IMG/VR virus record: IMGVR_UViG_3300037462_000235
Location: 1-24,347 of that record
Length of the DNA stretch: 24,347 nucleotides
From: a virus
Taxonomy: Duplodnaviria > Caudoviricetes
Direction: 5' to 3' (one strand)
Positions 354 through 7,303 of this stretch are shown piece by piece. The notes beneath the pieces are model-generated. The model made no database searches. It saw nothing but the letters and a program-made list of their open reading frames with translations, and was not told where the DNA came from. A program made the translations under genes and the position numbers. The stretch's first letter is position 1; each line of letters begins with the position of its first letter.

Positions 354-421
354 TGGTGGCCTACAGCTTCCAGCCGCGCTTTGTCGAGCCGATCCGGCAG
401 GGTCTAAAGACCCAGACAATA
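353..421 (+). pseudogene. 5' remnant of an ASCH-domain protein gene
   Basis: MVAYSFQPRFVEPIRQGLKTQTI resembles the typical N-terminus of phage ASCH proteins (F..I..G.KTQTIR motif). The similarity stops abruptly after ~421, where the sequence becomes the antisense of the minus-strand gene. Confidence 0.65.
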
Positions 422-618
422 TCGTCGGCTTCCCGCACGGCGGCGGGCGACCACACATGTCCCGAGTCCTGTGCCGCATCGCGGATCATCGCAGCATTTT
501 TGAAGAACATCTCGGCGACGTCCGGGAAGGAAACGAACTCTGGCCTGCTGAGGTCGCGCGCAGGAAAAGCGTTGTCGATCAGCACCTCGACAAGAGTGCG
601 CGCGAGTTTATCGGACAC
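361..618 (-). CDS. Hypothetical protein, probably 3'-truncated/chimeric (last ~20 codons are antisense ASCH sequence)
   Basis: GTG start at 618 preceded by AAGGGA on the minus strand. Protein-like composition (MSDKLARTLVEVLIDNAFPARDLSRPEF...). Divergent from the promoter at 668. Confidence 0.55.
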   Translation of the reverse strand: MSDKLARTLVEVLIDNAFPARDLSRPEFVSFPDVAEMFFKNAAMIRDAAQDSGHVWSPAAVREADDIVWVFRPCRIGSTKRGWKL

Positions 619-667: not shown

Positions 668-696
668 TTGACATTTCTGGGGACAACCCGCATTTT
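668..696 (+). promoter_or_regulatory. Putative sigma70 promoter for the antisense RNA/antirepressor operon
   Basis: Perfect TTGACA at 668-673, 17-nt spacer, CATTTT at 691-696 (keeps the -11A and -7T). Confidence 0.65.
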
Positions 697-704
697 GGTC
701 CCGT

Positions 705-757
705 TCGGACGCGTCCTGAAAAGCGCCCCGATCAAGACGACCGTAGGCGGTTACGCC
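705..757 (+). promoter_or_regulatory. Upstream antisense target region (c4 a1/b1-like)
   Basis: CTGAAAAG (716-723) is complementary to CTTTTCAG (856-863). AAGACGACCGTAGG (734-747) is 12/14 complementary to CCTACGGCAGTCTT (845-858). Small hairpin GGCG-GTTA-CGCC at 746-757. Confidence 0.7.
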
Positions 758-789
758 CCGACAGAGCCTCTCATTCGAGATCAGCTTCA

Positions 790-871
790 TCCGGGTGGCA
801 TGTGCAATGTCCAAGGCTTCGGCCCAAAGGCGCATGCGGATTGTCCTACGGCAGTCTTTTCAGCACCCGGA
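790..871 (+). ncRNA. C4/CI-like antisense RNA (P1 C4 / P4 CI type)
   Basis: Closing stem TCCGGGTG(790-797)/CACCCGGA(864-871). Arm GCATGTGC(798-805)/GCGCATGC(830-837) capped by GGC-TTCG-GCC. Second arm GATTGT/GCAGTC with loop CCTACG, and unpaired TTTTCAG. The loop and bulge are complementary to flanking sites. Lies directly upstream of an antirepressor gene. Confidence 0.75.
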
Positions 872-890
872 GCCGTTTCGGCTTCCGTAA

Positions 891-899
891 CCGTAGGAG
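891..899 (+). promoter_or_regulatory. Downstream antisense target overlapping the antirepressor Shine-Dalgarno
   Basis: CCGTAGG (891-897) repeats the upstream site at 741-747, is complementary to CCTACGG (845-851), and overlaps AGGAG (895-899) 6 nt before the ATG at 906. Confidence 0.7.
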
Positions 900-905
900 A
901 CCTAG

Positions 906-1589
906 ATGACCCTTCCAACCATCGCGGGGGTTCAATCCCGCATCCACAACCTTCCCGACCGTCCGCCGTTCATGATCATCCGCGAAATCGCGGAGGTCTT
1001 CGGGCTAGAGCAGCGCAACCTCGCGCGGCAGTTCCAGCGCACGAAGGACAAGTTTCCAGCGGGATACTACTTCGAGCTGACACCGGAGGAATACCGCGAG
1101 AAGTTGACCAAGAATTGGCAAACTTCCCAGGGCAGTCGTGCCGATGTGACGCAGTTCGCCTTCACCGAGAAGGGAGCGTTGTTCCTGCTTCGGTTCATCA
1201 CCGGCGACCAGGCGGACGCAGCCTTCACCATGCTGATCGAAGCCTTCGCGGACCAGCGCGACGGGACCTTGGACCGGCTGCGGGTTGCAGCCTTCAAGGA
1301 CGAGGTGGCCTACATCGGGCGGAGCAAGCTGCGGCTGGCGATCAAGCTGGCGGCAGAGGCGGGCTGGTCCTTTGGCAAGCTGTGGGACGAGCACGACTGG
1401 TCGGCTCCGAGGCTGGGCCGCGAGGTCGAGGACATGCGGATCAGGGGCTACATCCCGCAGGATTCGCTGTTCGTGCCCCACTACGTCTATCAGCGTCGGA
1501 AGTCCGAAAGGGCGCTGATGGAAAACCACGCAGAGGACGAGCGGCAGGGCAAGCTGAACCTTGGCCTGACCCTGGTCGCGGGTGGCTAA
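906..1589 (+). CDS. ORF6N (KilA-N-like) domain antirepressor-type DNA-binding protein
   Basis: Motifs IQSRIH...FMIIREIAEVFG....LARQFQRTKDKFPAGYYFELT.EE and FAFTEKGALFL...I....A.......IEAF are typical of ORF6N. AGGAG RBS and GC3-rich codon use. Confidence 0.85.
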   Translation: MTLPTIAGVQSRIHNLPDRPPFMIIREIAEVFGLEQRNLARQFQRTKDKFPAGYYFELTPEEYREKLTKNWQTSQGSRADVTQFAFTEKGALFLLRFITGDQADAAFTMLIEAFADQRDGTLDRLRVAAFKDEVAYIGRSKLRLAIKLAAEAGWSFGKLWDEHDWSAPRLGREVEDMRIRGYIPQDSLFVPHYVYQRRKSERALMENHAEDERQGKLNLGLTLVAGG

Positions 1590-1791
1590 CTTGTGCAACC
1601 ATTGTTCAGCCGACCCGCGCGACGCGGTGGGTGAAGTCGAGGTTGCACTCGGCGGCCTTCGTGTGCTGGTCAACCAACTGCCCCTCGGTTGTGAGGTGTC
1701 GTCTACTGGGCTTGGTGCCTTGCTTGGCCTCCTTCATGACCGACTCCGGCCCGCTTCCGACGCGTTGCAGGACTACATTCCCCGCACCTAA
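1582..1791 (+). CDS. Small hypothetical protein coupled to the antirepressor gene
   Basis: GTG start overlaps the upstream gene end. 69 aa, predicted helical (DAVGEVEVALGGLRVLVNQL...LGALLGLLHDRL). Confidence 0.6.
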   Translation: MANLCNHCSADPRDAVGEVEVALGGLRVLVNQLPLGCEVSSTGLGALLGLLHDRLRPASDALQDYIPRT

Positions 1792-2540: not shown

Positions 2541-2737
2541 TGCATTCTTCGATCCTGTATACCGCCGATTTCTCCCTTCGCCACTCGGAGGCAAAGACCC
2601 GGCTTTGGGCATCCGGTCAGGCTGAGACCGTGTTCGCCTGTCCGGGTTGTGGGAAAGCAGTCAGGGTTGCTTTGGATCGCAGGTCACAGGAGGCGACCTC
2701 GATGTGTTCAGGCGACTGTGGCGGATTGGCCTGGTGA
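2537..2737 (+). CDS. Small putative zinc-binding protein
   Basis: CPGC and CSGDC motifs. Start/stop overlaps on both sides fill the gap exactly. Confidence 0.6.
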   Translation: MMHSSILYTADFSLRHSEAKTRLWASGQAETVFACPGCGKAVRVALDRRSQEATSMCSGDCGGLAW

Positions 2738-3378
2738 TGTCCATGCACCCCCTTCTTTCCATCCGCCCGGCCGGGGGTTTCGGCCTGATCATGGCTGACC
2801 CGCCCTGGTCCTACGAGATGTTCTCGGCCAAGGGCTACCAGAAGGCGCCCGAGGCGCAGTACCAGACCATGTCGCTGGCTGATATCAAGGCCCTGCCGGT
2901 CGAGGCGCTGGCCGCGCCGGACTGCCTGTTGTGGCTTTGGGCCGTGAACCCGCAGCTGCCGCAGGCGATCGACGTGCTGCGTGCCTGGGGATTTACCTTC
3001 AAGACGGCTGGCACCTGGCTTAAGCGGTCCACGCGCGGCAAGGTGAGCTTCGGCACGGGCTACATCCTGCGGTCGTCAAACGAGCCCTTTCTGATCGGCA
3101 CCCGTGGCAACCCGAAGACGACCCGCGGCACCAGATCGTCCGTCATCACCCACGACGAGAGGTTCACGGGTACCGGCGACTGGTCGGACATCTGGCCGAA
3201 CGGAACCGTCACGATCGAAGCCTCAATCCGAGAGCACAGCCGGAAGCCGGAGCAAGCCTATTGGGCCTGTGAGGCCCTGATGCCTGAAGTTCGCAAGCTT
3301 GAGCTGTTCAGCCGCACGGACCGCGAAGGCTGGACAGCCTGGGGCGACGAGGCTGGCAAGTTCGAGGCCGCGCCATGA
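2737..3378 (+). CDS. MT-A70 family N6-adenine methyltransferase
   Basis: IMADPPW catalytic motif, Y.TMSLADIKALPV..LA..DCLLWLW, GTGY.LR...E..LIG.RG, EHSRKPE and LELFSR..R.GW..WGDE. Start placed at the ATG overlapping the upstream stop. Confidence 0.92.
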   Translation: MSMHPLLSIRPAGGFGLIMADPPWSYEMFSAKGYQKAPEAQYQTMSLADIKALPVEALAAPDCLLWLWAVNPQLPQAIDVLRAWGFTFKTAGTWLKRSTRGKVSFGTGYILRSSNEPFLIGTRGNPKTTRGTRSSVITHDERFTGTGDWSDIWPNGTVTIEASIREHSRKPEQAYWACEALMPEVRKLELFSRTDREGWTAWGDEAGKFEAAP

Positions 3379-6518: not shown

Positions 6519-7058
6519 ATGCCCGCGCCGAAGAAGCTGGACCTGATCCCCGATGCGCTGCGCGAACGGCTGAAGGCTGCGCTGATGGCGCGCGGGTTTG
6601 CCGACGTCATCAAGGTCACCGAAGAGCTGAACGTCTGGCTGGAGGCCGAAGGGCTGGAGCTGCGGATCGGCAAGACGGCCGTGGGCGAGTTCAGCCTGCT
6701 GTTGAAGCGCCAGCGCGATGCCTTTTCGGTGTCGAAGCAGGTCTTGTCCGAAATGGAGATCGGCGAAGAGAGCGCGATCTACCAAACCCTGTTCCAGCTG
6801 GTCGCGGCGCAGGCTGTGCACCTGGTGAAGGCGATGTCGGACGCCGATCAGGTGATCGAGGCGAAGGACCTGCACTTCCTGGGCAAGATGCTGAAGGACC
6901 TGATGTCGGCTGCCGGGATCAACGAGAAGCTGACGCAAGAGGTCGAGAAACGCCTGAAGGCCAAGCAGGCCGAGCAACTGACCGCCGCCGTCGCCAGCGG
7001 TGATATCGACGCCGAGGCCGCCGCGAAGGCGCGCCGCATCATGGGGTTTGCAGAATGA
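6519..7058 (+). CDS. DUF3486 / Mu gp27-like protein, putative terminase small subunit
   Basis: KLDLIP..LRE.L...L..RGF.......LN.WL...G..I.K.AV start and ...IMG end. Position between gp26 and terL. Confidence 0.8.
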   Translation: MPAPKKLDLIPDALRERLKAALMARGFADVIKVTEELNVWLEAEGLELRIGKTAVGEFSLLLKRQRDAFSVSKQVLSEMEIGEESAIYQTLFQLVAAQAVHLVKAMSDADQVIEAKDLHFLGKMLKDLMSAAGINEKLTQEVEKRLKAKQAEQLTAAVASGDIDAEAAAKARRIMGFAE

Positions 7059-7303
7059 ACGATCCTTATGCTGTGACCGCAGACGAGCTTCGCCAGTTCA
7101 TCGAGCGCTACGAAGATCTGGAGTCCGAGAAAGCCGACATCGCCGAAATGCAAAAAGAGCTGATGGCCGAGGCCAAGGGCCGGGGCTACGACACCGCCGT
7201 CATGCGCCAGGTGATTGCCCTGCGGAAAAGGAAACCCGACCAGATCGCCGAGCAGGAGGCCGTCCTGGAGCTGTATAAAGCCGCGCTGGGGATGAGCTGG
7301 TGA
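7055..7303 (+). CDS. gapR: GapR (DUF2312) nucleoid-associated protein homologue
   Basis: VTADELRQFIERYEDLESEKADIAEMQKELMAEAKGRGYDTAVMRQVIALRKRKPDQIAEQEAVLELYKAALGM is a near-canonical GapR/UPF0335 sequence. Confidence 0.92.
   Translation: MNDPYAVTADELRQFIERYEDLESEKADIAEMQKELMAEAKGRGYDTAVMRQVIALRKRKPDQIAEQEAVLELYKAALGMSW

Follow-up and report, generated by a model that had tools for sequence, protein, structure and literature searches.

A candidate C4/CI-type antisense RNA switch ahead of predicted antirepressor genes in Mu-like transposable phages

The leader at positions 668–905 of the window, by which we mean the whole 24,347-nt stretch of DNA that was analyzed, carries an RNA and a set of target sites whose short pairing words co-vary across 42 related phage cassettes, and on this comparative sequence evidence we regard the RNA-target pairing system as real and strongly supported. 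We think it probable that this self-contained accessory cassette is a C4/CI-type antisense switch that silences a predicted antirepressor in any cell already containing RNA with its own code. This reading draws on the target sites, their covariation, the fold of the RNA, the families of the cargo genes and the patchy distribution of the cassette, all of which were observed; the steps of the regulatory cycle are what we infer from them. The logic of the switch is classical, its RNA branch is uncatalogued, and the subfamily found in Mu-like phages is a distinct reduced design.

The first-pass annotation had proposed a promoter, two upstream sites (b1 and a1), an embedded RNA with a bulge, a downstream site (a2) and a ribosome-binding site, and all of these elements were found where it had placed them (plus strand throughout, unless noted). 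The a/b site nomenclature, like the notion of P1/P7 heteroimmunity, comes from the P1/P7 c4 system. The predicted sigma70-type promoter (668–696) comprises TTGACA (668–673), a 17-nt spacer and CATTTT (691–696), and homology among related cassettes begins at its −35 box. A TTGAC-17-xAxxxT pattern with the same 17-nt spacing was present in 39/39 homologues in which a −35 box was found (none was found in 3 of the 42), but a simple consensus scan made no call at 668–696. The spacer contains a short inverted repeat (676–690) that reads GGG..CCC in the window and GGCG..CGCC in most homologues, and that could be an operator for the cargo or for the phage repressor. Next comes an upstream hairpin (703–732), supported by folding and by covariation in its stem, which displays target b1 (CTGAAAAG, 716–723) in its loop, followed by upstream target a1 (CCGTAGG, 741–747), whose flanks (733–752) lengthen a predicted cis duplex with 839–858 to give −22.7 kcal/mol. 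A further folded hairpin, H (GGCG-GUUA-CGCC, 746–757), includes a strand (748–755) that is the alternative partner of a downstream strand at 886–893, and the latter overlaps the 5′ end of a2. The downstream target a2 (891–898; CCGTAGG at 891–897) overlaps the Shine-Dalgarno (SD) sequence AGGAG (895–899), with the start codon ATG at 906 lying 3′ of both; its contact with the RNA is 8 nt long (844–851:891–898) and covers AGGA of the SD. Overlap of a2 with a GGAG, GGAA or AGGA SD recurred in 41/42 cassettes. An 84-aa ORF running across the leader (655–909) was considered as an icd gene and rejected, because it lacks an SD-led start here and does not recur among the homologues.

The 42 distinct subfamily cassettes were drawn from 144 motif contexts with enough flanking sequence, obtained in protein- and DNA-seeded scans, and were defined by a GGCGG..CG..CC hairpin together with a CACCCGG P1 strand; distant ORF6N loci that do not have the leader (e.g., L035, L037, L038 and L043) were outside the counts. 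Using symmetric fixed windows, which agreed with an earlier best-match choice of loop and a2, we found that the P3 region or loop matched a1 in 40/42 cognate combinations and in 298/1722 non-cognate ones (17%), that the loop matched a2 in 41/42 and 319/1722 (19%), and that the bulge matched b1 in 42/42 and 113/1722 (7%), with kinship inflating the cognate counts and the number of distinct words setting a floor for independent changes. The expectation that loop and targets should co-vary in homologues was thus borne out, and none of 100,000 permutations equalled the cognate counts. A test made earlier on 21 modules, at fixed positions, had given 19, 20 and 20 matches for a1, a2 and b1, respectively. 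In a 20-row alignment, 99.3% of cells paired and 17 of 44 pairs were altered on both sides, and the bulge:b1 contact showed two-sided changes at 5 of its 6 pairs. The three imperfect cassettes (L011/L346, L029 and L036) each carry one change that leaves a G-U pair, and pairing is therefore retained in them. The loop takes nine different words and the bulge 21, which implies many independent changes; together they make 33 codes in the 42 modules, and only 29/1722 non-cognate ordered pairs matched at both sites, in line with the original proposal that specificity is borne by short words. Chance complementarity in GC-rich DNA might be suspected, given that 7-mers are short and that CCGTAGG occurs five times on the two strands of the whole window against 1.29 expected, with three copies inside 741–897 and two unrelated copies elsewhere. 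We give this explanation practically no weight, however, as not one permutation reached the cognate counts and sliding the 20-row alignment out of register dropped the paired fraction from 99% to 36–40%; the covariation refutes it.

The antisense RNA itself is predicted, from folding and covariation, to be an 82-nt three-way junction (790–871). Its 8-bp P1 (790–797/864–871) closes onto P2 (798–805/830–837), which bears an AUGUCCA/YAAAG internal loop and a tetraloop hairpin, and onto P3 (839–856), which holds the a′ segment (844–851, with CCTACGG at 845–851); the junction word b′, or "bulge" (CTTTTCAG, 856–863), is complementary to b1. The segment from 780 to 880 folded at −38.9 kcal/mol (z = −2.37), with 2 of 200 shuffles folding as well, and in a wider set of 69 sequences compensatory changes were seen in 18 of 22 predicted pairs. 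In the minimum free energy structure only CUAC of the loop 7-mer is unpaired, its CC and GG ends being paired, and P3 closes with the first two bulge bases. The complementary words described in the first-pass annotation as an exposed loop and bulge are present but less exposed than it implied, and with just four of the seven loop bases free, the a′ tip must open before target pairing. The P2 internal loop (807–829) is invariant, an invariance that in the wider set stems partly from how sequences were selected, and it may act as a determinant of processing or of protein binding.

The long-range outer helix (748–755:886–893) is not as well proven as the code contacts, because its upstream strand forms part of the selection pattern. 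At least 7 of its 8 pairs were formed in 39/42 cassettes, with one clean compensation (L261) and three broken helices; it is otherwise near-invariant, and it shares 2–3 bases with a2, with which it competes. Folding of the free window leader predicted the cis a1:loop duplex with a probability of 0.99 and P1 with a probability of 0.01. When a1 and b1 were forced unpaired, as a stand-in for binding in trans, the predicted values became 0.74 for P1 and 0.99 for the outer helix. Across the 42 leaders the same constraint raised the number with an outer helix above 0.5 from 9 to 29 and the number with P1 above 0.5 from 11 to 28, although the cis a1 trap was dominant in only 21/42 free leaders. Nested folding of these 42 leaders gave no closure of the SD upon occupancy of a1 and b1 (median accessibility 0.34 before and 0.41 after). 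The a′:a2 contact is a pseudoknot and lies beyond the folding program's model, so it is covariation and the P1/P4 precedent, not folding, that carry the case for repression.

The cycle we favor would begin with entry into a cell that holds no matching RNA, where the embedded copy would pair with a1 in cis through the extended duplex; its native fold would be blocked and the cargo would be translated as a brief pulse. Some transcripts would fold natively and be processed to free RNA, which would bind b1 and a1 of new transcripts and open hairpin H. The embedded copy could then fold inside the 748–755:886–893 helix and yield more RNA, in a positive feedback. The freed a′ loop, acting in cis or in trans, would pair with a2 over the SD and block translation. 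A resident copy would thereby keep silent both its own cargo and the cargo of incomers sharing its code, and an incomer with a different code would still fire its cargo. Background on this kind of system includes Citron and Schuster (1990) and the processing of C4/CI RNAs by RNase P in P1 and P4.

Repression might instead operate mainly by termination or RNA cleavage, as with P4 CI or through Rho after a translation block, and less by SD masking. P4 CI terminates through seqA/seqC, according to the part of the source consulted (PMC4825925), a T5+ tract lies upstream of the RNA in 27 of the 71 loci of the wider branch described below, and the outer helix could, we infer, serve as a processing stem. 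Of 34 subfamily leaders tested, however, just one had such a tract; a simple scan called no terminator in 668–905, and a2 sits on the SD in 41/42 cassettes, all of which makes this mode of repression improbable in our estimation. Still less probable, and by a good distance, is a leader that works in cis alone, switching between pairing at a1 and pairing at a2, with no trans RNA. Covariation in cis is indeed no proof of action in trans, but 33 nearly orthogonal codes would be needless for a cis switch, and the RNA, closed and conserved as a unit, resembles sRNA-Xcc1, which the portions of literature consulted report as a discrete RNA.

What the antisense switch would control is a 227-aa ORF6N-domain protein (906–1589; PF10543, E = 1e-15), for which we found 71 homologues and which we predict, from homology labels, to be an antirepressor. 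Its matches to PHROG anti-repressor families (E = 2e-8 and weaker) cover residues ~21–120 only. The 69-aa ORF that had been noted after it is present (1582–1791), overlaps the ORF6N stop codon, and appears to be a variable companion gene with a homologue in 15/42 cassette loci; it matched no Pfam or PHROG family, and gave an Atlas lead only (DUF1484 at 0.89). The cargo in the 42 cassettes comprised ORF6N (25), P22_AR_N (14), a Mu I-gamma fragment (2) and a truncated ORF (1), showing that the same leader is found with swapped cargo. The two fragment-bearing leaders (L276:4117–4566 and L330:1601–2050) precede a 150-aa protein that combines an HTH with a Mu transposase I-gamma domain and is possibly a transposition regulator.

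We also weighed the explanation that the same RNA switch drives cargo other than an antirepressor, so that the cassette would be a general timer for a pulse of DNA-binding or toxic protein upon entry, with no role in immunity. In the part of the source consulted (PMC10111431), ORF6N and P22_AR_N are described as interchangeable N-terminal domains in the Bro network, and this fits such a timer, as do the limited span of the PHROG matches, the Mu I-gamma fragment behind two cassettes, the accessory nature of the cassette and the report, in the part of a preprint consulted, that sRNA-Xcc1, a sister RNA, precedes symE in Xanthomonas integrons. On the other side, 39/42 cargo genes carry ORF6N or P22_AR_N, domains typical of annotated antirepressors, and the high diversity of codes with little cross-matching fits discrimination of phage versus phage. 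We consider a cargo of this other kind unlikely, though it is the strongest of the competing explanations.

The genomic setting agreed with the initial description of a Mu-like phage. A Mu GemA homologue identified by domain search (1822–2259) lies in the early accessory region, with genes for Mu gp27, portal, protease I and gpT further right, so that the window carries the markers of a Mu-like transposable phage, MuA/MuB lying outside the fragment; MuA/MuB adjoin cassettes in L368 and L369. Mu-like markers occurred near 38/42 subfamily loci, as compared with 4/48 wider-branch loci scored with the same marker set, and the named subfamily hosts were Tabrizicola, Rhodobacter, Fuscovulum, Roseovarius and uncultured Rhodobacterales. 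We do not retain the term prophage, since the record, a virus contig, is linear and 61% complete, and a lysogenic state of the window copy is unsupported. The early region also contains an MT-A70 methyltransferase gene (2737–3378), and a GapR-like DNA-binding gene lies among the packaging genes (7055–7303). Just upstream of the promoter is a divergent 85-aa ORF (361–618, minus strand) that matched no family; L024, L260 and L301 have a homologue of it next to the cassette. A blastn search with the leader found no homologue in a cultured phage, its one 32-nt match being attributable to chance; it returned three weak matches (H2–H4) to the RNA part on Sphingomonadales plasmids, one of them near a recombinase gene. 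Contigs of two sequencing runs, probably of DNA, yielded only pieces from relatives.

The distribution of the cassette is patchy. Within the flank retrieved, six of 34 gemA-relative loci had the motif, which lay upstream of gemA in one of them, like in the window, and downstream in five, and the whole cassette was absent from 4/4 near-complete close relatives (gemA 89–97% identical, CheckV 98–100%), with the positive control having it. In a Tabrizicola family sample the motif was present in 5/401 genomes, one of which was the seed genome. One Mu-like prophage (L369:2–3300, the same prophage as L017) carries a pair of cassettes with differing codes, separated by 2.3 kb, each preceding a different ORF6N gene and together flanking gemA; it also carries MuA, MuB and an S24-peptidase repressor-like gene. 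From this patchiness and the repressor-like gene in L369, the cassette looks like an optional addition to a protein-repressor system and not a required immunity region. The proposal of a second immunity layer was consequently too strong, given the absence from all four close relatives and an antirepressor activity that is predicted from family labels only.

Antirepressors under antisense control are known in P1/P7, P4 and N15. We found no literature on an antisense-controlled antirepressor in transposable phages, older phage papers being thinly covered in that search. As a tentative proposal, to which we attach well under even probability, the cassettes may form a third, uncatalogued C4-type branch in alphaproteobacterial Mu-like phages that has dropped icd, the attenuator and b2 to become a compact self-amplifying switch, in which 33 or more near-orthogonal codes would act as passwords, staying silent in own-code cells and firing the antirepressor at transposable prophages of another code; such a set might also offer an orthogonal regulator library for Rhodobacterales. 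The many natural codes permit clean specificity swaps, and the icd-less design with one downstream site is a simple system for asking whether trans RNA frees the cis copy.

The first-pass annotation had looked to the Rfam C4, c4-2 and c4-a1b1 models for recognition of the RNA, and none of them matched the window. C4 (RF01695; criterion at least 45 bits) gave no window match at E ≤ 10, c4-2 (RF02944) gave none at E ≤ 10 in the window or in four wider-branch records, and c4-a1b1 (RF03163) gave none in the window and a single one in wider-branch loci (L215; 15 bits, E = 8.5). The window was likewise unmatched by sRNA-Xcc1 (RF02221, gathering threshold 53 bits), the nearest family, and by isrK, and a gathering-level scan of 20 cassette loci returned 0 matches from any family. 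A DUF3268 RNA match in the window (15 bits, E = 1.3) was set aside as chance, its structure being different. Rfam 15 thus misses window-type RNA entirely. Searching with the invariant internal-loop motif retrieved at least 120 viral stretches (about 210 estimated), adding a branch of more than 120 viral loci to the C4 superfamily; 118 distinct contexts, less 5 at edges, 3 without P1 and 5 outside 74–92 nt, left 105. Among the 71 non-subfamily members, site a was present upstream in 58 and downstream in 52, and site b upstream in 67 and downstream in 57, against non-cognate rates of 10–23%.

Several lines of comparison connect this branch to sRNA-Xcc1. Six of 20 wider-branch loci scored 21–33 bits on the sRNA-Xcc1 model (best 33.3, against a gathering threshold of 53), and 33 sRNA-Xcc1-type loci gave 10 matches of 13–22 bits on the branch's own model, at the position of the RNA; all 20 sRNA-Xcc1-pattern loci that were checked lay above the Rfam threshold. 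The same four-site layout was seen in 77 sRNA-Xcc1 RNAs (69, 68, 60 and 67 of 77 for the four sites). The two RNAs share a short P1, a P2 with internal loop and tetraloop, a P3 and a junction word, and they differ in the invariant internal loop, which is AUACAAUA/GAAU in sRNA-Xcc1 and AUGUCCA/YAAAG here. From this shared architecture, the cross-model scores and the four-site layout, we place the RNA as a sister of sRNA-Xcc1 in a C4-like superfamily. Rfam-true sRNA-Xcc1 copies in viral contigs (L371–L450, e.g., L396:584–667) have co-varying b1-a1/b2-a2 sites, frequently with a U-tract attenuator 3′ of a1, and sRNA-Xcc1 therefore looks like a C4-type antisense RNA. The branch supports reading it as such and not as a virulence sRNA, although in the portions of literature consulted it is treated as a trans or virulence sRNA. 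A copy is reported there upstream of an ORF6N gene in APSE, and an equation of sRNA-Xcc1 with c4 antisense was not found in the consulted parts of literature naming both. Six motif strings were absent from 8 supplements of Weinberg 2010 (PMC2864571), a weak test in that alignment gaps split strings.

Judged by its sequence, then, the window RNA works like C4, yet is a member of no listed family. The c4-2 motif (RF02944) is described, in the part of its source consulted, as probably being distantly homologous to a known RNA, and parts of further papers (PMC5737381, PMC3632133, PMC11701678, PMC12189769, PMC4378225) and preprints (bioRxiv 10.1101/2020.03.17.996009 and 10.1101/2025.06.18.660453) were also drawn on. 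The P4 CI RNA, according to the same partial source as above (PMC4825925), is released from a leader by processing and can pair with sites on either side of itself. The cassette resembles P4 CI, and Gifsy-1 IsrK, in having a leader-embedded RNA complementary to upstream and downstream sites; P4, however, acts by termination on replication genes, whereas the subfamily has neither a U-tract attenuator nor an isrK match. A close precedent is the c4-icd-ant operon of P1, in which an antirepressor is under antisense control (PMC8198154, consulted in part). Like C4 (RF01695, RF03163), the window RNA has a tetraloop hairpin, an a′ hairpin and b′ at the junction, with its code in short words, but C4 combines a long P1 with a short tetraloop P2 in its alignment rows, and the window RNA an 8-bp P1 with a long P2 containing an internal loop. 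The target-RNA-target layout attributed to the leader at the outset is present and co-varying, except that its downstream side is only half of the P1/P4 arrangement: a downstream b2 site was found in 0/42 subfamily cassettes, compared with 57/71 in the wider branch. It was correctly noted that no small icd/kil ORF intervenes before the antirepressor gene. The window leader contains no SD-led small ORF, one 13-codon case (L288) was found among the 42 cassettes, and the RNA ends only 19–21 nt before a2, which leaves no place for icd. In sum, the cassette shares with P1/P7 immI a promoter, b1-a1 sites, a three-way RNA and then a ribosome-binding-site target before an antirepressor-type gene; it departs from P1 in having no icd-like ORF and no b2, in having an extra long-range helix, and in being an accessory gene block of Mu-like phages where the P1/P7 counterpart is a core immunity region.
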